A stretch of DNA of 44,678 nt, counting the filler, from Jimgerdemannia flammicorona (taxonomy: Eukaryota): assembly GCA_003990765.1 (NCBI GenBank). It is 2 parts of 2 records of this genome, joined end to end, with 100 filler letters (N's around TTAATTAATTAA, not from the genome) between each part and the next. Parts side by side here need not be neighbours in the genome. Positions count along the whole stretch, not along the records: positions 22,395 to 44,678 come from RBNJ01001311.1; 1 more part is not named here. One strand, given 5' to 3'. The position numbers were made by a program, and so were the translations under genes. This document shows positions 6,611 to 44,678 of the stretch, piece after piece. The notes under the pieces were generated by a model that was given only the letters and a program-made list of their open reading frames with translations, did not search any database and was not told the DNA's origin. The first letter of the stretch is position 1; each line of letters starts with the position of its first letter.

Positions 6611-6693
<83 letters not shown>

Positions 6694-8062: not shown

Positions 8063-11000
8063 ACCTTTCACCAGTAATATTCAGATAACACAAGACTCAG
8101 ACAATACTTTCTTCAATGTTTTTAATAAAAGGTGACTAGTAAAATAGATAGCAACAAATGTACTAGTGAGGGCATCAGCCATGGGGGCAGCAGTGCCTTC
8201 AACTGGCAGCATGTAGGGAGGAGGAGTAGTGATGGTTTGGGAATACCAGGGCCTTCTATGGCTGGCCATAGTACTGGAGGAGGAGGAAGAGGCAGATTGA
8301 GGCAATATGGAGAAGAGAGGATAACTTTTGCAGATAAGATCAAGATAGAGAGAATAGCATCTGGTCAGGATAGTTGGTTAGGCCTGGGGAAAGCATCAAC
8401 AGCTGCTGCTGGGAGACAGACAGGGGCCCCCATGGGAGGGACAGACAGTAAGAGAGGGGGGAGAGTAGGGGCTGGAGATGTGACTGCTGATGGAGCTGTA
8501 ACTGGGGATCTGGAAAAAAATCCAGATATGATGGTGGTTGGTGGTTCAGGATAGAGAGTGGGCATGAGGCCCAGAGACCTAGCAGATGATGTGATAGGTA
8601 TGGTGTCAGCACCATTACTCAAGAAATCAAAGTTAGAATTCACTGTCACATTGTGTTTTGAGGCTTAATAGTGACTGCCAGGATGATCTTGGGACTGGTG
8701 GTGCAGGAGGCAAAGGGGGCAGCTTCAGTGAGGTTCTTGAAGGAGAAAAAAGGGGTAGAGTTGGGTTCAAGAAGAAGGCATCATTATTGGAGACTATGGA
8801 GAAGGGGGTAATAGTGGGTGGAGTTGTGGTCCCTATGGCCAGGTGTATGCACTGGGACCCCAAATAGTACTGTTGACAGTATTGGATCTTCCTATGGTGT
8901 TGAAGGAGAGGGCCAGAAAGTTGATTGTGGAGGTAATCAAGGAGTATGGCGAGATTGTGGATATCAGGTTCAGAGTCTAGGAGAGCACTGAGCTCCAGAC
9001 TAGTGACATTGATATCCAGGTAAGGCTGACTGGAAAGGAGAACATGGGGAAGATGAGGGACTGGCCAGTGACTCTTAAGTGGGGAACAGTAGAGTGCAAA
9101 GTCTCATGGGTGAAAGAGACACCAGAAGAGGAGGAGGATTTGCTAGAGGCTCTTAAGGGAGTGGTTGAGAGGAGGAGATTGGCTTAGAAGAAGTATGAAG
9201 CCAAGACAGTGGTGGAAATGATGGATGGAAAGATGATCAGAATGGACTGGGTGACTGGGAGAAGATGCAGGGGAGATATATTCAGAAGGAGCTACTAGAG
9301 AAGTTGGAAGACAGTAGGGTTGGCAGCAGTACAGGAGAAGATGGTACAGGATTGTGAGAGAGTGCCTGGGCTGGGGAACACAGGATGGACCAAGGTTGGG
9401 CCCAGGGTGGATCAAGGGATGAGAGACAGGGTGGCATGGAGGCAGATGTGGAAATGAGAAGGAAGTATACCCTCAGTATGGTGTCCCAGATAGGGCAGGG
9501 GGTGAGGAGAAACTACTGGATATATCAGAGGAGGAGTGGGATGAGTCAGTGAGGAGGAGCACTTTGGTAGACCCAGAGGTGGGGGTTGAAAGGGTTGTAC
9601 AGAGTGTTGCAGAGATGGTGGATAAGGAGAAGTGACTTTAGAAGACTCTGGAGTGGAGGAGCTGGGGGGAGAGGACTTCTGGGTTATGGAAGAGAGACAT
9701 TGGGAGGAAATTCATTATGGTGAGGAGGTATCAAGGAAGGTTAGGAATGAATTCTGATGGTACTCTTGGAATCAGTTGAATATCAAGTGGATGATCAGAG
9801 GGAAGAGGGACTTTGGATAATTGTGAATGAATAGGTGGTATACTTGTGGTGTTCAAGGAAGGGGTTAGAGAAGTAGAAAGTGGTCTGTGTGCATTATTGG
9901 GCAGAAATGGAATTGGTAGATAGGGTGGAGTATCAAGAAATCTTAGAGGCATTGGATGCTCAGGCTGTAGTGGAAGGTGACCTGAAAGTAGAGTGGCACT
10001 TGGATCTGGCTGGGGATGAGATGGGCATGGAATACTAGGCTAGGTTCTCAAAATCAAATATTATTCAATATGAACAGTACAACTAGAATATTCTCTTTGA
10101 ACATAAAAGGGTTGAGGGGTGTAGCTCAGCATAGGTACATATTTGATTGGCTCAAGGGTTTGGATGTAGATCTCTTCTTATTGCAGAATGTATGTTATAA
10201 GGTAAATGTAGACTTACAGGATTAGACTAGGGAATGGAGGGGGGGCAGTAGTGTGGACTGTGTGGGGGGGTATTTTAATTAGAAAGGAGATGGAGGACAT
10301 TGGCAATATTGGACATTGGGAGAGTAGGTTGGTGTGGAGAGTGTGGAAGTGGCCTGGATGGAGCCCTTTGACTTTTGAGTCATGTTATTGCCCAGCAGAG
10401 AGGGGGGAGCAGGTAGATTGGATCAGAAATTTGAGAGGGGCCAGTGTGATGAGAGAGGCAGAGATTGAGTGCCTGAGGGGTGATTTCAATATAGTATGGG
10501 ATAGTGTGGTGGACAGGACCAATGGCAGGAGAGGAATGAGGGATAGCAGTGACAGGTTGAAGGATTGGATGAAGATAGAGAGGTTGAGTTCTTTGGTGGA
10601 CTTGAGGAGACAGTTCTGGGAAGATTGTTGAATTTATACTCACTGGGTGGCAGGGCTGGGCTCTAGGATTGACTGGATATTGACAGTGAAGTACTGGGGA
10701 GTAGATGTCAGAGCTGCACTGGAGGTGGTTTAGTGCCCATGGTCGGATCACTGGGTTCTGATAGGGACAAGGTTTGGGGGAAGTGAGGATGGGCCTGGAC
10801 ATTGGTGACTGAATTCTTCTTTATTGGAGGATAGTGCTTTATGGGCAGACTGGGAGGTGGAGGTTATTGGGAAAATTGGTAGATGGTGGGAGCAGGGCTT
10901 GGTGATTGGGGATCATTGGCAGAGACTGAAATTGAGTGCTCAGAGGTACTGGAGGGAGGCAGGGAAAGGAAGGAGTGCTCAGATGTAGCAGTGAATGCTA

Positions 11001-11784: not shown

Positions 11785-14700
11785 CACTCAGGCAGTTCCA
11801 TCTCTGATAAGCCGACCTCCCACAAAACCCTGCTGTTCTTCACCCAGCACCTGTTGAGCCACCTTCTGCAGCCTTGCAACAATTACTTTTGTCACCAACT
11901 TCCAGTCTATATTCAAAAGCATGATTGGCCTCCAATTCTTCCAGTCCTCTCACCTGCTCTTATCCTTATATAGTAAGGCTACCAACTCCAAATCCTGCTC
12001 TCCAACCCACTCACCATGCAGGAGAACATGGTCACAAAGGGCAGCCATCTCACCTAGCATTCCAGGGACCTTTGCCATTCTCCTTCAGAAGTCCCAAGGT
12101 AAACCATCCTCCCCAGACACTGTCCCAAGGTTAGTAGCAGCAAGGACCCTCTGGATCTCCTCCTCTTGGACTGATAAGATCAAGTCACCCATGCACTCTA
12201 TCTGCAGCAGTATCTACTCCTCTAGTGTAATTCCAATTGCCTCTGCATCCACACCCTCTTCTTCCTCACTCCACAGACCCCACCATCACTCCTTCAATAC
12301 CCCCAAGATCTGTTGTATGCTATGGACCAAATCCCCCTTGGCATCATAGACCCCATTCCACCGATGTCACACCCTCCTAGCTATGAGAAGCCTAGTCAAA
12401 TACCTAGTAGACCTCTCTCTCTCCTCCAACCCCTGCCACCATAGCCTGGCAGCCATCTCTTGCATATGGATCTCCTCCTCCTCCCGCAACACCTGCTGTA
12501 GCTCCACAGCCTCCAATCTCACCCTCTCAAGCCTCCAATCCTCCACCTCATCAGAGTCCAGCAAATCCACCCATTCCATCTACAATCTCATCAGCCTATT
12601 AGAAGCACACCATATGCACTTCCTCTGCTATCTTCCAGCCTCTACCAGCGCCTCCCCAATAGGCCCTTGCAGCCTCTTTTAACCTCACACACCAGGCATC
12701 TACAGACAGACCCTCATGTCTCCAGATAGGAACCTTCTCCTGAATGTCCACCACCCATGAGTCCCACAACTCCTTCTCAACCAGCAGGGAGGAGATAAGG
12801 TGCCAATGTCTGGGTCCATCTCCACTCCCCCCAAACTGCCCCTGCCCTAACAATCCCCAGTGATCAGACCACAGATACCACACAACCTCCAAAGACTTCC
12901 AGACATCAGCACTCCAATATTTGGCCATCAAAATTTAGTCAATCCTCATGTCCAATCCATTTACTCAATGGGTGTAGACCCTGGTGTCACCCCACTATAC
13001 TTGGCCCATATCTCCCAAGGAGCTAAGGTTTTCTACCTCCTCCCATACATCCAGTCCACCACTTCTCCCACCAGCATTCCTCCCTCCATCAGTTCTATCC
13101 AGTCATAGATCTCGAATCATATTAAAATCACCACCAAGAACATTGACACCTTCCTTCAAGAGAGGACCCTCCTCCAGTAGCTCTCTGATCCATGCAATCC
13201 TCTTGCCCCTAGCAGCTGGACAGTAGCAAGAGCCCACCCTCATCAATTCCCACCCCAGCCTATTCCATTCTCCCCAGACCAAGCAATCCCCCCAGTTCCT
13301 GATTTCCCCCAAATCCCCTCTACCCTTCTTCACCAGAATTGCCACCTTTCCAAACAAAGCAGTAGCCCCACCCCATTCCTAGTCCACTTCACCCTATCAT
13401 CCTTATCCTCACACCATACATTCTGCAGTAAAATGAGATCAGCCTCCAATCCCTTGAGCCAAGTAAAAATGTTCTTACACCACCCAGAACCCCAGAGCCC
13501 ATTCATATTAAGTGAGAAAATGTTAGTTATACTGTTCATAAGGAATACTGTTATATATCAAACTCATCCTCTATAACTCCATGTTTAAGTCCTCCTGTGC
13601 CAAGTCCAAGACATGCTCTGCAGCCAATTCCCACTTCTCAGCTTTCTGTGCCTCCAATCCCCCCAGAAGTTCAACCATTGGCCCATCCTCTTTCTCCTCA
13701 AAGTCCTCATGATACTCCAGACAGGCCTCTTGCCATAGCTGCAAACCATGATGCTCAGCCCAACAATAGGTTGGCTGTTCACCAGTGACAACCACCAGCT
13801 CTGCCTTCCTCACCTCATCAACCTCATATCCCTCCTTTTCCAGGAAACTCGTAAGAATCTCCCCCTTCAGCACCCCCTCCATTCCATTACCTCACAGAAT
13901 ACTTGCTCAATGCTCCTCAGGTATGGCTTGTAGGTCCACTTCTCCCAATGCCTCTACTGCCAGGTTATCCCTCAACTTGCTCATCTACAGTAGGTTCCCC
14001 ACCTCCTTCCCCTCAGGAGTCCCAGACCACCCTATATCCAGCATCGCAGTATCAGCTCCTACACTAGCAGCCTCATCCCACTCCTCCTCTGGGATATCCA
14101 CTAGCTCATCCTCACCAACTACCACCACCTGGCCCCCCTTTGTTACATCCGGGACCCCAAAGTGAACATGCTGGGCCCCCTGCATCGGCACATCCTCCAC
14201 TGCTCCTTGCCTCCCAACTGGGCCCCTCCTAATAAGTGGGGGGGGAGTGCCATCCAATTCCTGCTCCCACACCTCAAAAATACCATCAGCATATGAATTC
14301 TTGGCCAGCATCTTCCCAGCTTCATCCACATTTGCCTCCACCTCCTCAACTCCCTTGCCAGCCCAGACACTGGCCTCAACGCCTCCAGTCTCCTTGGCTC
14401 CAGCCAACTTCTTCTTCACTCCTCCTATCATACTCACCAACAACTCCCTCTGCCTCCTGCGCCCCTGGGCCCACTCCCACTGTTTCTTATCAGTATGGAT
14501 ATATTCCCATCCACAACCTCCAGATGCATCAACTTCTCATTTCTCTTCCAGGCATTCGCCCTCCTCTCCACAGCTCCACCCAACTCCTCCAGAACCTCCA
14601 GCAAGTCCTCCTCCTCCTCATCACTCCCTTTTACCCTCAACACCTTACAGATGAAGGCCCCCCACATCAGCACTGAGAGCCAGTCACTCACCTTCCCTAT

Positions 14701-15685
14701 GGGCTCCTTACCCACTAGCTGAATCCTGATATTGACATCATCTATCCAGATCGTCATCCCCTCCCACACCTGAAAGCCAATGTCCACCACATCACCATAC
14801 TCCAACAATACCTCCTCCACCCTCTTCCTAGTCTCCTCCTTAGTTACTGTGGGCACCCCCCTAACCAGAAGCTGCACCACTCTGGGGTCCCACCTCAAGC
14901 ACCTCACCATGGGAACCACCACCTCCCCAACCACTACTCCAGTCTTCAGTGCCTCGTCCAGTGGGTCTGCCTCCTCAAAGCCCACCTCAACCCCCTCCAG
15001 ACCCTTCAAGAATCTCACCAAGGCTGCCCCAGCCACCTGCTTTGAAATAAGCCCCAGAACCATCCTCACTGTCACCACTAAGCCCTGAAAGCACAAGCTT
15101 GCTGCGAACTCCGAAATTGACTACTTGAGCAATGGAGCCACTGCCAGTCTCATTACACCATCCACCAGGTCCCCCTTCCACATTGGGAACCCCTGTCCCC
15201 CCTGGCCATCAGCTATCACATCTCTTTTTTTTTCTAGATTCGCTGTCATGTCTCCATCAACAGTCCCACCACCACCTCCAGCAGCTACTCCACTCCCTCT
15301 ACCTCCCACCAGCGAAGGCCCAGCACCCCCAGCATCCCCAACCTTCTGCTTCCCCTTCCCTTCTGCCCATCCATCACTGGTACCCATCAGCCAACCCCCA
15401 TTCCTCAGCATGTTCACAAAGCTCCTTCTCTGCTGCCCTCCAGCCCCCCCACCAGCACTGCCTCCACTGCCCACTCTGTCCTGCCCTCCTGAGCTACCCA
15501 AGGACCCCAACCCCAGCCCATACCCTCTCCTGACATGCTGCCAGTTGAAGGCCCCAGGTCCACCTGACCTAGTACATGTGTTGGCTTACTTGCTAGTCGA
15601 TATTGCCTTAATATCTTTCTCTAATAAATGATTTGAAAGTGTGTTGTAAAAGCATGTGTAATGTTAATTGTAGTGGAGAAAGATG
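11782..15685 (-). mobile_element. LINE-c: A-related copy on the minus strand, 5' intact, 3' truncated in early RT (ORF1 ~15603-13571, ORF2 from 13539)
   Basis: minus-strand CATCTTTCTCC... leader; LISKQVAGAALVRFLKGLEG; MNSITNIFSLN, GGDFN, WSDHW; ends at EQQGFVGGRLIRDGTA. Confidence 0.9.
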
Positions 15686-31800: not shown

Positions 31801-32404
31801 AGATATAGAAATTTAAGAAGATTGTAGTGGTTGATGTCAGAATTACTTCTAATATATAGTATTAAATATATAACTCTTTAATATATAAATTTAATATATT
31901 AAACAACTATACTATGAATATACTACTTTCTGAAAAAAAAAAAAATATTTTCAGACTTTTGACCATCTAAATAGTATAACAACACTATACCCAAATAAGA
32001 AAACTCAATAAGAATATTGAAACTCTATAAGACTATTTAACAAGAATATTAAATCTTAAAAAAGGAATAATGTAATAAAATTATATTCCAATATTATAAA
32101 GGATGATATCATCAAGCTGACATTATTGAATTCATGTTATCAGTAAGGTTATATATTAGAAAAACTAAGAATATTAGTAAGATTATAATGATTTTACACT
32201 AATTTCAGTCCTCTTTAACTAGCAATATCATAGTAGTCACATTAGTCTCTATACTAATTTAATATATACTCATATTGATATCACTATGAATATATCTCAG
32301 AAATAGACTAAGAATGCTAAAAATAGTATGAGACTAAATTAGTCTATAGTTATATTGATGTTATAAACTAAAATAGTCTATAATATTATAGAAACTAGAG
32401 TATA
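28878..32404 (+). mobile_element. very eroded Ty3/Gypsy (chromovirus-like) LTR retrotransposon relic: integrase core ~30570-30800, chromodomain ~31250-31385, possible PPT and 3' LTR from ~32071
   Basis: DRDLKFISTF* and STIYYLQTDNQIERNNRTLKQILR...LLLAEFVYNN resemble STAYHPQTDGQTERTNRTLEQ...LPLAEFAYNN; EYIIE*IL...EYLVK*KDY resembles a chromodomain; boundaries uncertain. Confidence 0.75.
29756..30324. mobile_element. hAT-type MITE, copy 2, older and in opposite orientation to copy 1
   Basis: termini TAGTACTC...GAGTACTA; TSD AAAATAAG (29748-29755) versus AAAACAAG (30325-30332); the central loop is the reverse complement of that in copy 1; CpGs lost. Confidence 0.88.
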
Positions 32405-34121
32405 CACCTTTCACCAGTAACATTCAGGTGACACAAGACTCTGACTACACTTATTACTATGTTTTCGGTATTTAGTGACTAGCAATATAGATGGCAATGA
32501 TCGAACTGGTGAGCGTACTGGTCAGGGGAGTGACAGCGCCTTTGGCTGGCAGCAGGTGGGGAGGAGGGGAGATGGTTTGGGATACTAGGGGCCTTGATGG
32601 CTAGCCAGGATATTGGTGGTGGAGGGAGGAGAGAGCTGAGGCAGAGAGGAGGGGAGAGGTTGACCTTTGCTGATAAGGTCAGAATGGGCAAGATGGCCTT
32701 GAGTCTTGATGGCTAGCTGAACCTGGAGATGGCATCGACAGCTGCTGCTGGGGGACAGAGAAGTGTACCCAGGGGAGTCTCAGGTGGCAGGGGAGGAGTG
32801 GGAGTAGGGGCTAGAGATGTGACTATTGATGGGGCTGTGGCTGGAGATCTGGCAAAAAATCCAGATGTGATGGTGGTTGGCAATTCAGGACTGATCATGG
32901 ACACAAGGCCTGGGGACCTGGCAGATGGAGTAACAGGCATGGTGTTGGCCCCGTTACTCAAGAAGTCGAGGTCAGAATTTGTGGTCACAATGTACTTCCA
33001 GGGCTTGGTAGTGATGGCGAGGATGATTTTGGGGCTGGTGGTGCAGGAGGCTAAGGGAGTGGCATCGGTGAAGTTTTTGAGGGGAAAGGAAGGGGTTAAG
33101 GTGGGGTTTGAGGAGGAAGACACCTTGTTGGCAGCCATGAAAAAGGGGATGATGGTTGGTAGGGTCATGGTCCCTATGGCCCGGTGCATGCACTGAGATC
33201 TGCAGGTAGTGCAGTTAATGGTGTTGGATCTCTCTACCATATCAAAGGAGAGGACCAGGGAGTTGGTTGTGGTGGCAATCCAGGAGTATGGTGAGATTAT
33301 CGATATTGGGTTCAAGGTCTGGGAGGGAACAGAGCTTCGAACTGATGATGTTGATATCAGGGTGAGGCTGGCTAGAAAGGAGAGTATGGGGAAGTCAAGG
33401 GACTGGCCAGCAATGTTGAGATGGGGACCGGTGGAATATAAGGTCACAAGGGTGAAGGGGACCCAGGAGGAGGAGGAGGACCTGTTGGAGGCTCTGGAGG
33501 ATCTGGAAGAGGTGGTTGCAAGAAGGAGGTTGGCCTGGAAGGAGTTTGAGGCCAGGATGGTGGTGGGGGAGGTGGATGGGAAGAGGGTCCAGATGGAAAA
33601 GGGGGCCTGGGAGAAGATGCAGGGGAGGTGGATCCAGAAGGAGCTGTTGGTGAAGTTGAGTGGGGGTAGGGCTGGTGGAAGCTCAGGGGAAGGAGTTGCA
33701 GGGTTACAGGAGAGTGCCTGGGCTGAGGGGAGAGAGATGGCCCAGGGTGGGGCTCAGATTGGAGTGAGGGAGGAGAGGGAGGGCAATGTGGAGGTGGATG
33801 CCGATATGGGTGAGGGTGGGCACCCTTAGTATAGTGTTCTGGATGGGGCAGAGAGGGGGGAGGAGTTGATGGTGTGCCAGATGAGGAGTGGGATGAGTCA
33901 GTGAGGAGGATCACACCAGTGGACCCCGAGGTGGATGGGGGACAAATTGCTCAGGGGGTGGCAGAGGCAGTGGATGAGGATAAGTGGATGTGGAAGACCC
34001 TAGAAAGGATAGCGGCTGAAGAGCTGGGGGGTGAGGACTTCCGGGTGATAGAGGAGAGGCACTGGGAGGAGATCCTATGGGGGGAGGAGGTGCTGAGGAA
34101 GATGAGGAATGAGATCCTGGT

Positions 34122-34621
34122 GAGGAGGAAGAAGGCCCAGTGGGAGTCAAGGGAGCAAACCCAGAGCCAGTGTCAAAGCGAACAGAAGACATGTGGAAGA
34201 GCATATATAAGGGGGATGAACAAAGAATGTAACTGAATGCATCAGCCATTTATTGCCATATAAAAACGCAGTCCTTATATACAAAATGCAACGTCCCAAA
34301 AGGGAGGATGCACCACAACTCAGGGCAAACTGAATTAGGAACCACATGACCACCAGAGATAGGCAGAGATAAAGGGGGAGCCAATCCCAGTTACAGGATA
34401 AAAATCACAAACAAACACAAACAAAACAAATCCAAATCGAGATTAAAAAACATCCGCAGACCCTGGAGGAGTGAGTGCGAGCAAGGGGTGAGGCCAAAAT
34501 GGAGTGAGCCACAGCGAGCCTGAGTGAAGCGAGGGGCCAAAGGCAGCGGAGGGGAGCAGAGTGAGGCTGAGACCCTGGAGCAAGCGCGAGACCCCAGAGG
34601 GGGCAAGGATGTTTTTTAATC
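34122..34621 (-). repeat. 3' pseudo-LTR with a tail extending into the start of ORF1
   Basis: near-identical to 37779-38278; the minus strand carries TATATAA, AATAAA and the ORF1 N-terminus (MSSVRFDTGSGFAP). Confidence 0.9.
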
Positions 34622-36701
34622 CTCTCCAGCAGAACCAGAGGCACCAGAAGGTGATGAAAACGCAAAATGAGAGTAATGGATTGAAGAAGAAATAGAAGGA
34701 AGACATGAACGAGCAATCAGAGGGCGTTGGAAAAGAGATGAAAGTCCATGGCATGAAAGAGAAGAGCGCAGGATGGTATCAGGGCATTGAGCAACCTAGC
34801 GAGCATGATCAAATGGTATGACAAGAATCAGGGGAGGGAAAGAAGAGGGGGTATGGAGAGGGTAAGGGGGGAGAGAGGGAAGGGAGGGGGGATAAAGAGG
34901 AGAGAGAAGGATAGAGCAAATAACAGACCATTCAACAGAAGCAAGCAGATCACGAATGATAGAAATAGGGTAGGCACGATGATGGACCATGAAGTTGCCA
35001 AGAACCCGAACAGCAGACACCCAATCAGAATGATGGGAGCAGCATAATGCAAGACAATGAGCCTCACCCCGAATATATTCAAGAAGAGTGCGATAAGGAT
35101 GATTGGACAAGAAGTCAGGGAACTGTTGGGAATGGGGAAAATGAGAATAAACAATAGTTTGGAAAGGAGAAAGAGAAATGGAAAGATCCAAAAAAAGGAA
35201 TACTAGTCATACTGCACACCCAGGTAATAGAATGGTGGGGAGGGTAGATGCTCAGGAACACACTAGGGATATCAACACCAGCAACAGCAAAGACAATAAA
35301 GTCATCGATATATCGGCAAAAGAAGATATCCCCAGCCCAGAACGCAATGGAAAGAGGTGAAGTAATATCACATAATGCATGCAATTCATGGGCCAGGCCA
35401 ACGAGGTTGGCAAGGGTGGGGGCACAATTCGTTCTCATGGCAATACCAGAAGTCTGGTGGAAGGAGCCAAGGGCCAACTCAAAATAATTAGAGCTGCAGA
35501 CGAGGAGTGTAAGCTCAACAATGGAAGCCAATGAAACTGGGGAATCCAAAGGAAAAACAATAGAACCCAAGAAACGAAGGCAAGCATTGATCTCATCAAA
35601 ACGAATAGTAGTATAAAAGAAAGAGAAGTCACCAGAGGCCAAGTGGGAAAAATGATGAACAGGCACAATGGTGGAGCAGAGAAAGGCGAGCTCCTGAGTA
35701 TCATGAAGAATAGTATACTCAGGCCCAAGATGGTGTTGTAAGAGAGCCATCCAGAAGAGAAAGAAGTGGGATAACCACTTTGAAATCTCAGTGGTAAGAG
35801 AACTATAAGTAGCTGTAATAGGATGCCAAGCCAAAGTAGGCTTGTGAACTTTAGGAAGAGTATAGAAAACTGGAAGAGAAATATCCGGGGAGGACAAAGA
35901 GTCTTGGAAGAAGTTAAAAATGGGGTTCACGAACAGAGAATCTGAAAGTGATCTAGCATGAGCCAGAGATACCCGAAGAAGAGTGAGAACCTCATCCAAT
36001 CCAAGAGTACTAGGCTTGTAAGCCATGGCTCGAAAGAGGGCAGAAAGGCCATCAAGGTAGAGCGACTTAGGAATAAGTGCAAAACCCTGATTCTTATCAG
36101 TGACTATGAGCAAATGCATAGGTAATTGCTTGACCGATTTAAGCATAGTACGCATGGCACAGTCCAAAACCAAGCAAGAGTGAGCACGTTCAGAAATGGA
36201 CAATGAGCAAGCTATGTTAAGAAATACGCAGTGTGAAGAGACATTGGGAGGGGGGACCCAATTGCTAGGAACAAAATAGTGAGAGGGCATCTCACTGTGA
36301 TCTTGAAAGAAAATGACAAGGTCAAGAGCACAACAAAAATGTGTGAGATGAGCCAGATCAGTAAAGGAGAATTGTGAGGGAGTCACAGAAAAAACAAAGT
36401 GAGGACTCAAGAATAAGGCAAAGACTTGAAGGGGAGAAAGGGGGCAGTCAGCTAAAGAAAAAGGAGGAGACAAAAGAGCTCCAAGAGAAGAATAAACCTG
36501 AAAGTTCGGGACAAGCAACTGGGAAAGGTGAAGGGGAGACAGCATGAGGAACCACTCAGAGTGCACCAGAAGTGATGATGGAATCTGAGAAGGGATGGGG
36601 ACACTGGGGGAGAACCATGCCAGAGGGAAGTTTAAGAGCAGGAGGCCTTCCCCTTCCCTCTGACTTTTTTTGAAGGTGGTGAACTCAACAAATAAGAGCA
36701 C
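34616..36701 (-). pseudogene. PLE ORF2 reverse transcriptase (one extra base in the T7 run at 35190-35196, premature TAG at 34796-34798)
   Basis: TDKNQG, FYTLPKVHK..WHPI, GDFSFFYTTI, GIAMRTNCAPTLANL, RYIDD, IPF(L)D, FLSNHP..GEAH, RAYP, LVIPF, RPLIA; ends ...SAGED* at the pLTR edge. Confidence 0.9.
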
Positions 36702-37906
36702 ACCCCGTCAGAGTGCCAGACCTTGTGGCCACAGACATTCATGCAGCCCTTACATTTAGGGGCACAGAGGGAGGAGGCGGAGGAGGAACCAGCAGAGAAG
36801 GCCGAAGGCGAGCGAGTAGCCAAAGGGGCAGCAGCATGAGGAACACCACCATGAGGACAGACGGACTTGGCCAGGTGCCAGTAGGCATGGTGGAGGCGAC
36901 TGGAGCAGATAGCATAGGGCCAAGCCCCAACAGGGTGAGAACCAAGTTGGCAGCCATACTTGGGGGCAGGAGGAACAGAGGAGGAAGCCTTGGCGGGGGA
37001 GGGGGACCGAGAAGAGGCCAATGAAGCCTGATTGGGCTTGGTGGGGGACTTGGCGGGGGTCTTGGAGGGGGCCTTGGTGGCAGCAGTGGCAAAGGAACGA
37101 ACCTTGGTACGGACAGCAGCACGAGTCTCAGCACAAATGGCCTCGGAGACCAAAACCTCAGGGGAGGTAGGCAGGGGAGTAGTGGCGGCAGTGCGAGCAG
37201 CGGTGGCAGTACATGACATCTCCTGCTTGTGAAGACGAGTGACAAAAGAGATGCCGGTGAGGAGGAAATGACATACAGCATTGATGTCAGCAGCAACAGA
37301 AGGAATGTCTTGGATGGCGAAGCCACAGAAGGGGGCAGTATCTGAAAGGCAGGAGGAGGTGAAGGCCATGAAGGCAGCACAGGCATGTTGGAAGGAGGCA
37401 GAGGCAGTGGCAGCGGAAGCAGCAGTGACATCAGTGGCAGCGAGCTTGGCAGCAGCAGTAGTGGCACAAACCTCTTCAGAAAGGGCTTGGCGGTGGGCCT
37501 CAGGGAGAACAGAATAGCAGATGATGGGTGGAGCAATGATGTCAACGTCACGGCGGAGACGAGCCTCCTTGGTAGAGAGGGCAAGAACCGACCGGAACTG
37601 GGAGAGGAGCGGATGACCAGAGGGACAAAGGTCCAAGGGGAGGGAAAGGATGGCAGACAAGATGTAGGCCTCGAACAAGACAGTGGCAGGGGTGAAGGTG
37701 GGGGGAGGGGGAGGAGGAAGTTCCTCATCCATGAGCTCATCGATGAGGATGGTGGCCCCGAGGGCAGGCGGTACAGTAGAAGAGGAAGAAGGCCCAGCAG
37801 GAGCCAAGGGAGCAAACCCAGAGCCAGTGTCAAAGTGAACAGAAGATATATGGAAGAGCGTGTATAAGGGGGACAAACAAAGAACATAACCAAATGCATC
37901 AGCCAT
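36632..37906 (-). CDS. PLE ORF1, 424 aa, unknown function (Ala-rich helical middle, Pro/Ser-rich linker, basic C-terminus)
   Basis: open frame starting inside the 5' pLTR and overlapping ORF2 by 70 bp; C-terminal PPSKKVRGK is NLS-like. Confidence 0.65.
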   Translation of the reverse strand: MADAFGYVLCLSPLYTLFHISSVHFDTGSGFAPLAPAGPSSSSTVPPALGATILIDELMDEELPPPPPPTFTPATVLFEAYILSAILSLPLDLCPSGHPLLSQFRSVLALSTKEARLRRDVDIIAPPIICYSVLPEAHRQALSEEVCATTAAAKLAATDVTAASAATASASFQHACAAFMAFTSSCLSDTAPFCGFAIQDIPSVAADINAVCHFLLTGISFVTRLHKQEMSCTATAARTAATTPLPTSPEVLVSEAICAETRAAVRTKVRSFATAATKAPSKTPAKSPTKPNQASLASSRSPSPAKASSSVPPAPKYGCQLGSHPVGAWPYAICSSRLHHAYWHLAKSVCPHGGVPHAAAPLATRSPSAFSAGSSSASSLCAPKCKGCMNVCGHKVWHSDGVCSYLLSSPPSKKVRGKGKASCS

Positions 37907-38278
37907 TTATTGCTACATAAAAACACAGTCCTTATATACAAAATGCAATGTTCCAAAAGAGAGGATGCGCCACAACTCGGAGTGAACTGAATTAGGAACC
38001 ACATGATCGCTGGAGATAGGCAGAGATAAAGGGGGAGCCAATCCCAGTTGCAGGTTAAAAATCACAAACAAACACAAACAAAACAAATCCAAATCGAGAT
38101 TAAAAAACATCCGCAGACTCCGGAGGGGTGAGCGCGAGCAAGGGGTGAGGCCGAAATGGAGCGAGCTGCAGCGAGCCCGAGTGAAGTGAGAGACTGAAGG
38201 CAGCAGAGGGGAGCAGAGTGAGGCCAAGACCCTGGAGCGAGCATGAGACCCTGGAGGGGGTAAGGATGTTTTTTAATC
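37779..38278 (-). repeat. 5' pseudo-LTR (direct repeat of 34122-34621)
   Basis: direct sequence comparison. Confidence 0.9.
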
Positions 38279-38766
38279 TCAATTTGGATTTGTTTTATTT
38301 GTGTTTGTTTGTGATTTTTATCCTGCAACTGGGATTGGCTCCCTCTTTATCTCCACCTATCTTCAGTGGTCATGTGGTTCCTAATTCGGTTCGCCCTGAG
38401 TTGTGGCGCATCTTCCCTTTTGGGATGTTGCATTTTGTATATAAGGACCACGTTTTTACATGGCAATAAATGGCTGATGCATTTTTGGTTACATTCTTTG
38501 TTTGTCCCTCTTATACACGCTCTTCCACATGTCTTCTGTTCACTTTGACACTGGCTCTGAGTTTGCTCCCTTAGCTCCCGCTGGGCCTTCTTTCTCCTCT
38601 TTTGTATATAAGGACTGCATTTTTACATGGCAATAAATGGCTAATGCATTTTCAGTTATGTTCTTTGTTCATCCCCCTTATACATGCTCTTCCACATGTC
38701 TTCCATTCGCTTTGACACTGGCTCTGGGTTTACTCCCTTAGCTCTTGCTGGGCCTTCTTCCTCCTC
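38264..38766 (+). repeat. two tandem inverted, truncated pLTR copies (38264-38599 and 38600-38766)
   Basis: reverse complements of 34122-34455 and 34122-~34286; the first forms a ~335-bp-arm palindrome with 37779-38112. Confidence 0.92.
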
Positions 38767-41263
38767 TCCTAGAGTCAGTTGAATATCAGGTTGATGATCA
38801 GCATGAGGAGGAACTTAGGAAGATTGCAAGTGACAGGGCACTTTTCTTGTGGAATTCGAGGAAGGGACTGGAGAAGTGGTATGCAGTCTGCTTGGACTAC
38901 TAGGCAGATATGGCAGAAGTGGACAGGGTGGAATGTCAGGAAATCTTGGGGGCACTGGATGCTCAGGATAATGTGGAGGGTGACTTGGAAGCTGAGCGGC
39001 GCTTGGATCTGGCAGGGGATGAGATGAGCATGGAATTATAGGTTGGGGTCTCTATTACAACTTTTCTTCAATATGAACAGTACAACTAGAATATTCTCAT
39101 TGAATGTTAATGGGTTATGGGGGGTGGCTAGGAGGAAGTATATATTTGGTTGGCTTAAGGGACTGGATGTGGACCTCTTCTTGTTGCAGGATGTCTGTTA
39201 TGAGGTGGATGTGGACTTACAGAATTGGACTAAGAAATGGGGGGGTACAGTGGTTTGGAGGGGGAAAGTGTGTATTCTCATTTGGAAAGGAATGGGGGAC
39301 ATTGGGGACATTGGACATTGGGGGTCTTGGGTGGTGTGGGGAGTGTGGAAGAGGCCTGGATGGGGCCCACTGATGGTTGGGTCCTATTACTGCCCAGCTG
39401 AGAGAGGGGAGAGGGTGGATTGGATTTGCTAATTGAAAGAGGCTGGTATATTGGGAGGAGTTGGACTGGACTGTATGGGGGGTGACTTCAATATGGTACG
39501 GGATAAGAAGTTTGACAGAACTGATGGAGAGAGAGGTGAGCAGGGTGAGAGTGGTGGGTTGGGGGACTGGTTGGAGATGGAGAGGTTGAGTTCTCTAGTG
39601 GACTTGGGGAGACATTTTTGGGCTGATTGGTGGGTGTACACCCACTGGTGGCAGGGCTGGGCTCCAGGATTGACTGGGTTCTAACAGCAGAGTGTTGGGG
39701 AGCAGATGTCTGGTCAGGGCTGGAAGTTGTATGGTGTCCATGGTCTGATCACTGGGGGATACTTGGAGGGGGGAGGTTTGGGGGAAATAAGGATGGGCCT
39801 GGACATTGGTGGCTAAATTCTTCCTTGTTGGAGGATAGGGTGTTGTGGGAGGGTTGGGAAATAGAGGTGGTGGGTAATATCGGCAGGTGGCAGGAATAAG
39901 GACTGGAAATTGGGGACCACTGGAGAAGACTGAAGGCGAATGCTCAGAGGTATTGGAGGGAAGTTGGGAAAGAAAAATATATCCAGTGAAGGTAGCAGGT
40001 GTGGTAGGCCTCACGGCATCTGGCAGCACTCATGGAAAGATGGGCAGGTGTGCTGGAGGATGGGGAAGTAACTGATTGGCATATTGTGAGGATCTGGCAG
40101 GAGGTGGAGGAGCTTAAAGGGGTGCTATGTAGGAAGGAAGAGGAGCAGTTGCAGAGAATGGTGGTCTGCCTACAGTGGTAGGGACTTGAGGAGGGGGAGA
40201 GGCCTACTAGGTTCCTGTCATGGTTGTTACAAGTACAACATATAAGGCAGTGGTGGGAGGGAGTTTTGGATGCAGATGGCAAGCTGATGGTGGGGACTCC
40301 AGCGATTCTGGGCCTATTGCAAACCCGGTGGAGGAATCTTTGGAGTGAGGAGGAAGGAGGATTGGATGCTATAGATGTTGAAAGGCAGCTGGGAGATTGG
40401 CACCTGAACCCTATATTGGGACTTGGGGTATTGGGGGACCCAGTGAGTGGTGAGGAAATTTGCAGGGTTGTGGCCTCAACGAGTAAGGGGACAGCCCTGG
40501 GAGAGGATGGACTTCCCTGGGATTTTTGGCAGAAGATGACTGAGGTGGGCGAGGTGCTAGAGGAAATGACTGCTATGTGCGATGGAGTTCTTCAGTCTGG
40601 TGTTTGGATTGGGGGACAGTACTTAGAGCTAGTCTCCTTGCTCTATAAGAATAAGGGAAGAAGAGAGGACTGGAAGAACTGGTGGCCAATTATGCTTCTT
40701 GACATAGACTGCAAACTGGTGATGAAAATTTTGGTGATGAGGCTGTAAGGAATCGCTCAACAGGTGCTTGGTATGGAACAGCATGGGTTTGTCAGTGGTC
40801 AGTTGATTTGAGATAGGACAGCCTGGGTTCATGGAGTAATTGAAGGTGCCTGGGCAGCAGGGGTGGATGGCAGATTGGTGTTTCTGGACCAAGAAAAGGC
40901 TTATGATAGAGTGCAGAGAATATGGCTAGAGGGTGTGCTAAAATAGATTGGTATCCCTCTGGGGTTCCGAGGATCATTGATCAGCCTCTTGGAGGATAGT
41001 CAGGTGGCATTAGTCATCAATGGCCACAGGGAAGTGACCTTTCCCCTAGGACATGGGGTACTACAAGGGGACCCCTTGTTGCCCATTTTGTATGCCCTCT
41101 CTCTGGAGCCACTACTGGACAGAATTTAGCATCAGATTGGAGGTTTGGACATTTTAGGGGTTAACTGGAAGGTGGGGGCCTTTGCTGACAATATGGTGGT
41201 CGGGCTGGGCTCCTTGGTGGATGTGGGAGAGTTGCAGAGGACTGTGGAATGGTATGAGAGGGG

Positions 41264-42874
41264 CATGTTCCTCCGGTAACATTCAGGTTACACAACCCTT
41301 TGGCAACACTTTCAACACAGTTTCTGGAGAAAAGCTATTAGTATCATGGCGACCAACGAGCATCCGGAGGTGCGTACTGGGCAGGGTGGCCCTGGAGCGT
41401 TTGAATGGCAGCAAGTGGGGAGAGGCCCCGGCTTGGGGGGAAGTATGAGGGGCCTGCTGGCAGGGGGCCATGGTGGAAGAGGGGGTGGAGCTGGAGGTCA
41501 AGGGTCCGGCAGAGTGAGCTTTGTGGAGAAGGTGAAGGGGGGTCAACAGGGAGCTGGACTGGAAAGCTGACTGAGAGGGGGGAAGGTATCGGTGACGGCT
41601 TCCAGGCAGCAACCACTTGGAGGTGCATCTCTGGAGGGCCATAGGAGTGGAGCTGGGGGGGTAGCGGCTAGGGTGGGGACTGCTGATGGGGGTATGACAG
41701 GTGATCTGGAAAAAAATCTAGATGGGACTACTGATGGTGAGCCGAGCAGTGGGAAGGGCACGAGGCCTGGGGACCTGGTGGATGGTGTGATGGGACTGGC
41801 AGTGGCTCCGTTACTCAAGAAGTCGATCTTGGCGTTCGCAGTCACGCTGTGCTTCCGGGGCTTAGCAGTAACGGCAAAAATGGTGTTGGGGCTTATTGCT
41901 AAGCAGGTGGCAGGAGTGACTTCGGTGAAGTTTCTGAAGAGACTGGAGGGGGTGGAGGTGGGATTTGAGGAGGTGGAACCACTAGAGGAGACACTGAAGG
42001 TTGGGTTAGTGGTTGGGGAGGTGTATGTTCCGATGGCGAGGTGTTTGAAATGGGACCCGAGGGTGGTCCAACTGCTGGTGAAAGGAGTACCCATGGTGAT
42101 GGCGATGGAGATGAGGAAGAGAGTGGAGGATGTCATGGCGGAGTATGGCAAGGTGGTGGACATCGGATTCAGGGTCTGGGAAGGGACCATGCTCAGGACT
42201 GGGGATGTGGATGTGAGGATTCGGCTAGCTGGGAAAGAGGCTACCGGGAAGACGAGGGACTGGCCTTCAGTATTGGTCTAGGGGGCTTTCCTGTGCAAGG
42301 TGACATGGGTGAAAGGGAGTGAAGAAGAGGAGGAAGATTTATTGGAAGTACTGGAGGAGCTGGATGGGGCTGTGGAACGGCGAGCTAAGGCCTGGAAGAC
42401 TTTCGAGGAGTCGACGCTCCTGGAGGTAGTGGATGGAAAGAGGATTCGAGTGGACAAGGTGCAGTGGGAAAGGGCTCAAGGGCGGAAGAGGCAGAAGGAT
42501 TTGCTGGCCAAGCTGGGGGGTGGTCATCAGAAGGATGCGAGCATGAAGACGGGTACAGAAGGGGCCGGAGCGAGTGTCTGGGCTGGTGAGAGGAGTGGGA
42601 ATGAAGGGGCAGGGTCCGGAAAGGCTAAGGAGGTGGAAATTAGAGACCTATATGCTGACGGCACCTTGGAGATTTGGGATGACGGCTGGGAGAATTCTCC
42701 CACCCCTTCCCCTCTAATCAGGCATGGCCCGGCTTCCAGGAATAAGCCTGGGGAGAACGTGACGATGCTGGGAACCCAGCAGGTGAAATTCAGTGTTCCG
42801 GAGGTGTTGGATGGGGACCAAGTGGGGGCAGCAGGAGAGGAGGAACTGGTGGATGTCCCAGAGGTGTGGGATGA
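41264..42874 (+). mobile_element. LINE-g: young subfamily A copy nested in the LINE-f RT; ORF1 from 41346 (two TGG-derived stops), cut by LINE-h
   Basis: CATGTTCCTCCGGTAACATTCAGG leader; MATNEHPEVRTGQGGPGAFEWQQVGRG; many CpG retained. Confidence 0.92.
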
Positions 42875-44678
42875 CACCTTTCTCCGGTAACATTCAGATT
42901 ACACAAGACTCAGACAACACTTTCTACAATGTTTTTGGTGTCCAACGACTAACAATATGGATGGCAACGATCGATCTGGTGAGCGTACTGGCCAGGGGGG
43001 TGGCGGCGCCTTTGGCTGGCAGCAGGTGGGGAGGAGAGGAGATGGTTTGGGGATGCCAGGGGCCTCGATGGCTAGCCAGGGCCCCAGTGGCGGAGGGAGG
43101 GGAGGTCTGAGGCAGAGAGGAGGGGAGAGAACGACCTTTGCTGACAAGGTCAGGATGGGGGCGATGGCTTCTGGGCTGGATAGTTGGCTGGGCCTGGGGA
43201 AGGCGTCAATTGCTACTACCGGGGGTCAAGGAGGTGCACCCCAGGGTGCTTCTGGTGGTAGGGAAGAGGCCGGAGTAGGGGCTGGAGATGTGACAGTTGA
43301 TGGGGCTGTGACTGGGGATCTGGCAAAAAATCCAGATGTGACAGCAGTTGGCAATTTGGGACTTGGAGTGGGCACGAAGCCCGGGGACCTGGCGGATGGG
43401 GTGACGGGTATGGTGTCGGCCCCGTTACTCAAGAAGTCAAGGTCTGAATTTGCGGTCACAATGTGCTTCCGGGGCTTGGCAGTGACAGCGAGGATGATTT
43501 TGGGGCTGGTGGCGCAGGAGGCTAGGGGAGCAGCATCGGTGAAGTTTTTGAGGGGGAAGGAAGGGGTTGAAGTGGGGTTCGAGGAGAAAGATGCCTTGTT
43601 GGCAGCCATGGAAAAGGGGGTGATGGTTGGCGGGGTTGTGGTCCCTATGGCTCGGTGTATGCGCTGGGACCCCCGGGTGGTGCAGTTGACGGTGTTGGAC
43701 CTCCCTACGGTGTCGAAGGAAAGGACCAGGGAGTTGGTCGTAGAGGCGATAAAGGAGTATGGCGAGATTGTGGACGTGGGGTTCAAGGTCTGGGAGGGCA
43801 CTGAGCTTCGAACCGGAGATGTCGATGTCAGGGTGAGACTGGCTGGAAAGGAGAATACGGGGAAGTCGAGGGACTGGCCAGCAGCGCTGAGGTGGGGACA
43901 AGTGGAGTGTAAGGTCGCTAGGGTGAAGGGGACTCAGGAGGAGGAGGAGGACTTGCTGGAAGTGCTGGAGGATTTGGAAGGGGCTGTTGCAAGGAGGAGA
44001 TTAGTCTGGAAGGAGTTCGAGGCCAGAACAGTGGTGGGAGAGGTGGATGGGAAGAGGGTTTGGATGGAGAAAGGGGCCTGGGAGAAGTTGCAGGGGAGGA
44101 GGATTCAGAAGGAGTTGTTGGCAAAGTTGGACGGGGGTAGGGTTGGTGGAAGCTCCAGGGAGGGGGCTGCAGGGTTGCAGGAGAGTGCCTGGGCGGAAGG
44201 AGGAGAGATGGCCCAGGGCGGGGCTCTGATTGGAGGCGGGGTGGAGAGGGAGGTTAACCTGGAGGTGGATGCCGATATGGGGGATGATGGGTGCCCTCAG
44301 TATAGTGTGCCGAATGGAGCGGGAGGCGAGGAGGAGCTGATGGATGTGCCGGATGAAGAGTGGGATGAATCAGTAAGGAGGAGCGCGCTGGTGGACCCCG
44401 AGGTGGATGGGGGATGAATTGCTCAGGGGGCGGCGGAGGCGGTCGATGAGGAGAAGTGGATGTGGAAGACCCTGGAAGGGGTAGCAGCTGAAGAGCTGGG
44501 GGGTGAGGACTTCAGGGTGATGGAGGAGAGGCATTGGGAGGAGATTCTACATGGGGAAGAGGTGCTGAGGAAGATGAGGAATGAGATCCTGGCGGTCCTC
44601 TTGGAGTCGGTTGAATATCAGGTTGATGATCAGCGTGAGGAGGAGCTTAGACAGATTGCGAGTGAGAGGGCACTTGTC
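42875..44678 (+). mobile_element. LINE-h: youngest subfamily B copy nested in LINE-g ORF1; runs off the window end
   Basis: CACCTTTCTCCGGTAACATTCAG leader directly after GTGTGGGATGA of LINE-g. Confidence 0.93.
42957..44417 (+). CDS. LINE-h ORF1 protein (486 aa open; the TGA is probably a CGA>TGA mutation and the frame continues to the window end)
   Basis: longest open LINE ORF1; LINE-f has CAA at the homologous codon and homology continues past the stop. Confidence 0.85.
   Translation: MDGNDRSGERTGQGGGGAFGWQQVGRRGDGLGMPGASMASQGPSGGGRGGLRQRGGERTTFADKVRMGAMASGLDSWLGLGKASIATTGGQGGAPQGASGGREEAGVGAGDVTVDGAVTGDLAKNPDVTAVGNLGLGVGTKPGDLADGVTGMVSAPLLKKSRSEFAVTMCFRGLAVTARMILGLVAQEARGAASVKFLRGKEGVEVGFEEKDALLAAMEKGVMVGGVVVPMARCMRWDPRVVQLTVLDLPTVSKERTRELVVEAIKEYGEIVDVGFKVWEGTELRTGDVDVRVRLAGKENTGKSRDWPAALRWGQVECKVARVKGTQEEEEDLLEVLEDLEGAVARRRLVWKEFEARTVVGEVDGKRVWMEKGAWEKLQGRRIQKELLAKLDGGRVGGSSREGAAGLQESAWAEGGEMAQGGALIGGGVEREVNLEVDADMGDDGCPQYSVPNGAGGEEELMDVPDEEWDESVRRSALVDPEVDGG

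Follow-up and report, generated by a model that had tools for sequence, protein, structure and literature searches.

Penelope-like elements (PLEs) are retroelements whose mechanism of retrotransposition is poorly understood, and those lacking an endonuclease have usually been described as confined to chromosome ends. In this study, a stretch of DNA of 44,678 nucleotides (nt) from Jimgerdemannia flammicorona (assembly GCA_003990765.1), hereafter the window, was analysed, and a decayed PLE without an endonuclease, located at positions 34122-38766 inside a copy of a long interspersed nuclear element (LINE), is described. The locus gives a before-and-after view of an insertion at an internal site, with both junctions resolved to the nucleotide. 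We consider it, with a probability of about 0.7, to be the fossil insertion of an endonuclease-deficient PLE into the spacer between the two open reading frames (ORF1 and ORF2) of the LINE; its identity as the fossil of an endonuclease-less PLE is firmer and can be held as very probable. Every component feature has a published precedent and this is not a new kind of element; what is added to knowledge is one resolved case in which the full architecture is present without an endonuclease, telomeric repeats or a tail. A single decayed copy is a lead, not a demonstration.

The typical layout of a PLE insertion, according to the sections of Craig et al. 2021 (PMC8557442) on which all our statements from that source are based, is a partial tandem copy, or pseudo-long terminal repeat (pseudo-LTR), together with an inverted, 5'-truncated copy. 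In those sections, a hammerhead ribozyme is said to be present in the pseudo-LTR of all PLEs other than Naiads and most Chlamys, the cleavage properties of the endonuclease are suggested to determine the tandem and inverted structures and the tail, and endonuclease loss in PLEs "is not unusual". Elements without it need "alternative means of securing 3'-OH groups", and the non-telomeric examples given are PLE-X of Chara, present genome-wide, PLE-X of Selaginella, specific to 28S ribosomal DNA (rDNA), and the Neptune-like MjPLE01 (PMC8557442). Excerpts of a second source describe a two-ORF Coprina with flanking direct repeats in Ascochyta lentis (Coprina-1_Alen), a two-ORF Athena, and PLEs scattered in other isolates (PMC13159263).

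As far as these excerpts go, the element in the window resembles Coprina and Athena in its reverse transcriptase (RT), which has a DKN-type motif, ends after the thumb and is not followed by an endonuclease, and in its flanking direct repeats and two-ORF form (PMC13159263). A further likeness lies in the fungal relatives of its RT (Gigaspora, Racocetra and Puccinia) and in the C-strand telomeric repeats of some metagenomic relatives. Unlike Coprina and Athena, the copy in the window is interstitial in a LINE and has neither reverse-complement telomeric repeats at its 3' end nor a detectable hammerhead. With PLE-X of Chara and Selaginella and with MjPLE01, in the sections cited, it shares an internal location in the absence of an endonuclease. 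With canonical PLEs (Penelope/Poseidon, Neptune, Nematis and Naiad), again within those sections, it shares the composite form of the insertion and the RT motifs, but it differs from them in having no GIY-YIG endonuclease, no junction "tail" of 30-40 base pairs (bp), no target duplication and no hammerhead.

Structure of the locus and of its insertion site

Self-comparison resolved 34122-38766 as a single retroelement locus with its sense on the minus strand, composed of four parts with a common 3' end. The full-length unit of 3,657 nt runs from 37778 to 34122 (minus strand); its length was obtained from the start-to-start spacing of the direct repeats and the tandem joint 37779/37778 marks its boundary. 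The last 500 nt of the unit (34122-34621, minus strand), delimited by blastn, alignment and translation, form its terminal repeat and 3' untranslated region (UTR) and recur upstream as a direct pseudo-LTR, a 5'-truncated copy at 37779-38278 (minus strand) with 89% identity over 500 nt in blastn. Two inverted, 5'-truncated copies are placed on the plus strand. The first, of the last 336 nt of the unit, occupies 38264-38599 (90.5% identity over 336 nt) and meets the direct pseudo-LTR within a 15-nt palindrome arm (38264-38278); the second, of the last 167 nt, occupies 38600-38766 (90.4% over 167 nt), and its 3' end adjoins host DNA. With a pseudo-LTR and adjacent inverted, 5'-truncated copies, the locus has the layout of a PLE. 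A search of the whole window found no second copy of the element.

The common terminus of all four copies is ...GGGCCTTCTT(C/T)CTC(C/T)TC. Since the four copies end alike, both outer junctions fall at the identical nucleotide of the element, as had been stated in an earlier description of this DNA made from the sequence alone (the original prediction). The same description had spoken of inverted identical ends; the shared end is real, but its reading as the element's own inverted ends does not hold, as these are the 3' ends of the full copy and of the inverted 5'-truncated copies in a standard PLE layout and not terminal inverted repeats.

The 3' UTR measures 494 nt and contains a (TTTG/TTTGTG)n tract (TRF); the RT stop lies within the palindrome arm that forms the first stretch of the 500-nt repeat, and the repeat is thus equivalent to the 3' UTR. 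Its 3' terminus is defined and carries no poly(A), telomeric repeats or recognisable hammerhead. The two arms of the palindrome were read directly from the sequence: the first, GATTAAAAAACATCC, of 15 nt, at 34441-34455, and the second at 34607-34621, where translation places the RT stop TAA (34616-34618) in overlap with it. They are separated by 151 nt. At the foldback centre of the locus the arms lie at 38098-38112 and 38264-38278, the 151-nt segment is present once, and the inversion point sits exactly on the native 15-nt palindrome. RNA folding of the palindrome-bounded segment of 151 nt gave a terminal stem only, with z = -0.48 for the whole region.

Both flanks belong to a single LINE copy (LINE-f), interrupted in the spacer between its ORF1 and the start of its ORF2. 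Comparison with LINE paralogues of the window revealed two empty sites: ctggcg gtcc tcttggag in LINE-h (44588-44606, plus strand; gtcc at 44595-44598) and ctgatg gtac tcttggaa in an older paralogue at 9.7 kb (9754-9772, plus strand). The consensus of the two, ctggYg gtcc/gtac tcttggaR, is replaced at the filled site of LINE-f by ctggtg[element]tcctagag. Four host bases were lost at the insertion, or 3-5 given one ambiguous base per junction, microhomology amounts to 1 nt at each junction, and no target-site duplication is present relative to the two paralogous empty sites. These values agree with the loss of about 3 bases, the microhomology of about 1 bp and the absence of a duplication reported previously. 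Neither a "tail" of 30-40 bp nor poly(A) was found at the junctions. The interstitial position was likewise confirmed, as the flanks form one LINE copy and a tandem-repeat search detected no telomeric repeats in or beside the element.

No hammerhead was matched by Rfam at the gathering score across the window, nor up to E = 10 in 34000-38900, a test whose power is limited by decay and by the short, minimal hammerheads of PLEs. The pseudo-LTR does contain a CUGAUGC, which was examined as a possible hammerhead core; it was discarded because the conserved form is CUGAUGA and no Rfam match backs it.

Divergence among the four repeat copies is 10-12%, with many CG/TG/CA alternations among the differences, and each copy has private changes of CpG type; the observed/expected ratio of CpG in the window is 0.15. 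Judging from this pattern, the insertion is old and is set in a methylated, CpG-decaying genome. Decay after the insertion comprises the divergence of the repeats, mostly at CpG sites, together with a single frameshift and a single stop in the RT.

Coding content, relatives and missing endonuclease

The RT is encoded on the minus strand in three stretches, all established by translation. The core ORF (35118-36707), of 530 codons from stop to stop, contains the motifs TDKNQG, LPKVHKP and YIDD, which were aligned with those of relatives. Motifs 6/7 and the thumb (FLDL..., SNHP..., RAYP...) follow in a different frame at 34799-35206, as found also by tblastn and alignment, the change of frame being near 35195-35206. 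An in-frame stop at 34796-34798 precedes the last 59 codons (34619-34795; ...RPLIARS...GED), which match the C-terminal tails of three related proteins (P0001, P0176 and P0006), and the final TAA is at 34616-34618. A tblastn search with P0001, the closest relative, traces exactly this broken path, with its frame change and its stop; the original prediction of a PLE-type RT with one frameshift and one stop is therefore upheld by translation and by the tblastn path alike. Pfam gave no significant match on the ORFs of the window itself, the RT included, owing to the decay and the extreme composition of the copy.

ORF1 (36635-37906, minus strand), recognised by three-frame translation, has 424 codons, is rich in Ala, Ser, Thr and Pro with a Cys/His-rich C-terminus, and shares about 70 nt with the RT ORF. 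Searches for a domain (Pfam) and for homologues, among the ORFs of 48 metagenome loci and among the stored proteins, gave nothing, and its best score in an Atlas comparison was 0.88, with low recognition. An overlapping frame of 440 codons at 36742-38061 was rejected as a gene, since it corresponds to the CNN phase of the true, NCN-rich frame (Ala, Ser, Thr and Pro) and reads as low-complexity Leu/Pro sequence. The first ATG of ORF1 (37906-37904) lies inside the upstream pseudo-LTR, and its frame (MADAF...) is open across the tandem joint into ORF1. The equivalent ATG in the 3' copy (34247-34249, minus strand) opens a frame that runs out of the element into host DNA, and the frame is not kept in the two inverted copies. 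ORF1 may thus be translated from a start codon of the pseudo-LTR, as read from a single decayed copy. A transcription start in the pseudo-LTR is published for Penelope and Chlamys-3 in the sections of Craig et al. used here (PMC8557442), and an ORF1 start at that place fits with it.

A HMMER search of a library of 1.8 billion proteins retrieved 1,047 homologues of the RT at E ≤ 1e-3, the closest being P0001 (E = 1.0e-57, 49% identity). The set of PLE motifs TDKN.G, LPKVHK, GIAMGT.CAP, RYIDD, FLDL, SNHP and GYP was aligned with the relatives, and the TDKNQG, LPKVHKP, YIDD, FLDL, SNHP and RAYP of the window RT fall into place in this alignment, as expected of a PLE. Named relatives include Racocetra fulgida and Gigaspora margarita (Glomeromycotina), the rust fungus Puccinia sorghi and the amoebozoan Stenamoeba stenopodia.

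Trees were built with FastTree (79 rows) and with IQ-TREE under LG+G4 in quick mode (35 rows), from rows without named Coprina, Athena or TERT references. Both trees agree in pairing the window RT with P0001 (support 99-100), and the two are placed in a clade of six rows (support 98) with two Glomeromycotina proteins (Gigaspora and Racocetra), P0004 and P0006. In the enclosing assemblage, an endonuclease occurs in outgroup rows only, and loci bearing telomeric repeats are included. Unlike PLE-X, the window RT groups with sequences of fungi and Amoebozoa. Canonical hammerheads, a CxC motif and a distinctive N-terminal extension (CxCX1-8C) are the features given for PLE-X in the sections cited, in addition to the 28S rDNA target in Selaginella (PMC8557442). 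Visual inspection of a 16-sequence alignment found no conserved Cys motif upstream of the DKN block.

The endonuclease was sought in the window and in the relatives. In the window, no nuclease was found by Pfam in 69 stop-to-stop pieces of at least 40 amino acids (aa), covering all frames of both strands; this search has low power, as the decayed RT also escapes Pfam. Among the relatives, 148 of the 150 best representatives were scanned by Pfam, and a single one, P0118, has a GIY-YIG domain (E = 2.5e-4), a match that serves as a positive control that the scan can detect a PLE endonuclease. The other 147 of the 148 are devoid of it, and none of the 148 has Exo_endo_phos, integrase, recombinase or RNase H. 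LINE-type or DIRS-type domains are also absent from all of them (0/148), which together with the aligned motifs and the homology of P0176 to P0118 bears out the earlier reading of the RT as PLE-type. A regular expression for GIY-YIG matched one of 161 stored proteins.

The lengths of the proteins point in the same direction. The Y[IVL]DD motif was found in 102 of the 150 best representatives, of which 78 extend 150-265 aa beyond it, 11 are shorter fragments and 13 extend 266-464 aa, the latter without a GIY-YIG match. The window RT ends about 235 aa past YIDD, and P0176 (complete, 554 aa, from Gigaspora margarita), P0006 and P0001 end within 10-30 residues of its stop, with a C-terminal tail in common (...P(L/I)(I/V)...(N/S)(L/I)...). 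When P0176 is aligned with P0118 (E = 6e-28), the alignment stops at residue 703 of P0118, whose endonuclease starts at 871. Because the intact relatives end at the homologous position and 147 of 148 have no GIY-YIG, the element is assigned, by comparison of sequences, to an endonuclease-less lineage and not to the deletion derivatives. The upstream ORF and the missing endonuclease originally described for this copy are thus borne out, and the latter is a property of the lineage.

A metagenome scan with P0001 alone gave no confirmed locus. The 48 metagenome loci obtained with a 4-sequence alignment as query are distant relatives (23-38% identity), and none comes from the nearest clade. An upstream ORF overlapping the RT ORF is present in 16 of the 48 (15 contigs), and no Pfam domain was detected in 13 upstream ORFs of relatives. 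Repeats of the form (CCCTAA)≥2 occur on the sense strand in 3 of the 48 loci and in the G-strand orientation in none, and looser C-strand units in 7; the wider group of relatives accordingly includes telomere-repeat-bearing elements of the Athena/Coprina type. At the Rfam gathering score, the 40 of these 48 loci that were examined gave no hammerhead.

Several relatives have features of their own. In L020 (2588-2968), the RT ORF is directly followed by about 380 nt of degenerate, telomere-like C-strand repeats (CCCTAA, CCCTCA and CCTAAA variants). In a single contig of 11,827 nt (L025/L026), at least three full two-ORF PLE units without an endonuclease follow one another head to tail, repeating every 3,196 nt. 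The identical ends of 123-150 nt in five other contigs (L002, L006, L007, L011 and L012) are overlaps of assembler size and suggest that the units, of 3.3-5.3 kb, are tandem or circular. P0008, P0014, P0018, P0025, P0031 and other representatives of 900-1,200 aa have an N-terminal extension of 350-500 aa before the DKN block, in which no Pfam domain was detected, and which may be a fusion of ORF1 to the RT or an unannotated domain.

Formation of the insertion and alternative explanations

The sequence features of the locus can be accommodated by a scheme of formation from a pre-existing break by converging complementary DNAs (cDNAs), to which we give roughly even odds. The RT would extend two host 3'-OH ends, supplied by a break already present or by nicks close to each other, and each cDNA would begin at the exact last nucleotide of the element RNA. 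At both outer junctions, host DNA adjoins the element precisely at its 3' terminus, so that a host 3'-OH would have been extended on RNA on both sides. Each cDNA would then make one end-to-end jump to the 3' end of another RNA, generating the joints 37779/37778 and 38599/38600. These internal joints restart at the same last nucleotide, which is the signature of end-to-end template jumping. The converging cDNAs would anneal through the 15-nt palindrome of the 3' UTR (38098-38112 / 38264-38278), giving rise to the foldback centre, and repair synthesis would finish the duplex. The positions of the priming sites imply 5' overhangs or resection, and hence the small target deletion. As the element encodes no nuclease, the primers would most simply come from a break that already existed. 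For the foldback, snap-back self-priming of one cDNA was also considered and rejected, since it would not give the exact 3' terminus together with a further 3'-terminal fragment.

In L1 twin priming, an inverted structure arises from priming on both strands, and the locus in the window can be likened to it. It also resembles endonuclease-independent L1 insertion, described in excerpts of PMC1920257, in which insertion at a break is accompanied by a small target deletion and no duplication. Unlike L1, the window RT is of a different class, and the locus has no poly(A), priming at the exact 3' end of the RNA and repeated end-to-end template jumps.

Several points weigh against a break-primed insertion of an endonuclease-less element. 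The mode of insertion is inferred from a single junction pair of the single copy in the window, and small target deletions are also found with endonuclease-bearing retroelements, so that the missing duplication is no proof of endonuclease independence. The direct all-frame scan for a nuclease has little power and the case rests on the relatives, among which the 13 of 102 representatives with 266-464 aa past Y[IVL]DD may have unrecognised C-terminal domains; a nuclease supplied in trans is also possible. Both trees are quick ones, and the row of the window was flagged for aberrant amino-acid composition. The direct pseudo-LTR could derive from a terminally redundant RNA that was transcribed from a tandem master copy, beginning in its pseudo-LTR, with no template jump. 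Decay could have erased a hammerhead or short terminal repeats; as to the latter, the agreement of all four 3' ends argues against their loss. The use of pre-existing breaks as put forward in the original prediction is a reasonable inference, but with one junction pair it was overstated.

Four other explanations of the locus were weighed. The most probable of them, with a small share of probability, is that the break was cut in trans by the LINE endonuclease, or by the nuclease of another retroelement, and then used by the PLE RT. In its favour, the element sits within a LINE, LINE copies make up nearly all of the window, and the N-terminus of LINE ORF2 (...LNVNGL...) is one that we take to be AP-endonuclease-like. 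However, the target LINE is a passive inserted copy, and nothing ties its endonuclease to a site within itself; in a LINE-saturated window, moreover, any insertion is likely to hit a LINE. The positions of the cuts point to 5' overhangs or to resection in which sequence was lost, and not to a target-primed footprint with duplication. A LINE endonuclease as the source of the break, as suggested in the original prediction, finds no support.

It is unlikely that the element arose by deletion from a PLE with an endonuclease, or is a non-autonomous relative of such a PLE, and was mobilised in trans by the endonuclease of full-length members of its family. The RT tail (...ILRSS..HGL..F.RPLIARS...) presumably resembles the linker located before the endonuclease of canonical PLEs, which would suit such an origin, and the GIY-YIG of P0118 starts about 170 aa past the end of its alignment with P0176. 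The composite layout also equals that of endonuclease-bearing PLEs in the sections consulted (PMC8557442). Against this stand the closest relatives, including the complete protein of Gigaspora margarita, which stop at the equivalent point, and the absence of GIY-YIG from all but one of the 148 relatives; a stop within 10-30 residues of the ends of relatives fits poorly with a random deletion.

An assembly artefact or a later rearrangement as the origin of the inverted and tandem structure is very improbable. Assembly problems from such structures are noted by Craig et al. in the same sections (PMC8557442), but the four copies are 10-12% apart with private CpG-type changes, which fits old paralogous segments and not collapsed or duplicated reads, and the inversion point falls exactly on the native 15-nt palindrome. 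Least probable of all is an addition to a broken or telomeric chromosome end, as in Athena and Coprina, that became internal only later: relatives with C-rich telomeric repeats on the sense strand (3 of 48 loci, and the array of L020) would suit it, but it is contradicted by flanks that are one LINE copy, continuous except for 3-5 nt, and the element neither contains nor adjoins a telomeric repeat.

A proposal broader than the scheme above, and rather doubtful, is that an endonuclease-less PLE lineage, sister to elements of Glomeromycotina and devoid of C-strand repeats and of a hammerhead, left the telomeres and spreads through internal double-strand breaks primed at both 3' ends. In that case, the architecture of PLEs would come from the RT, through initiation at the exact end, template jumps and palindrome annealing, and not from GIY-YIG as Craig et al. 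2021 proposed, and ORF1 would be translated from a start codon in the upstream pseudo-LTR. The locus is mild evidence that the RT and not the endonuclease builds the tandem and inverted architecture. Should the pattern hold across the family, endonuclease-less PLEs would be able to fill DNA breaks, their architecture following from the behaviour of the RT.

LINE copies and base composition of the window

LINE copies of one decayed family fill nearly the whole window, with pairwise identities of 66-90%. Examples are those at 8960-10598, at 32000-34121 and 38767-41000, at 41500-44678, and at 13188-15120 (minus strand). We take their ORF1 to be RRM-like and the N-terminus of their ORF2 to be AP-endonuclease-like; Pfam gave no significant match on eight LINE ORFs. 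No host genes or transfer RNAs were found in the window.

The plus strand of the window has 29.7% G and 16.3% C. The sense strands of the LINE copies are G-rich (36-42% G, 13-16% C) and the sense strand of the PLE is pyrimidine-rich (about 36% T and 32% C). A block at 12-16 kb has the opposite skew, which indicates that the asymmetry follows the orientation of the elements and not the region. At 6614-6691 the plus strand has 78 consecutive A, probably the poly(A) tail of a LINE copy or of a short interspersed nuclear element.

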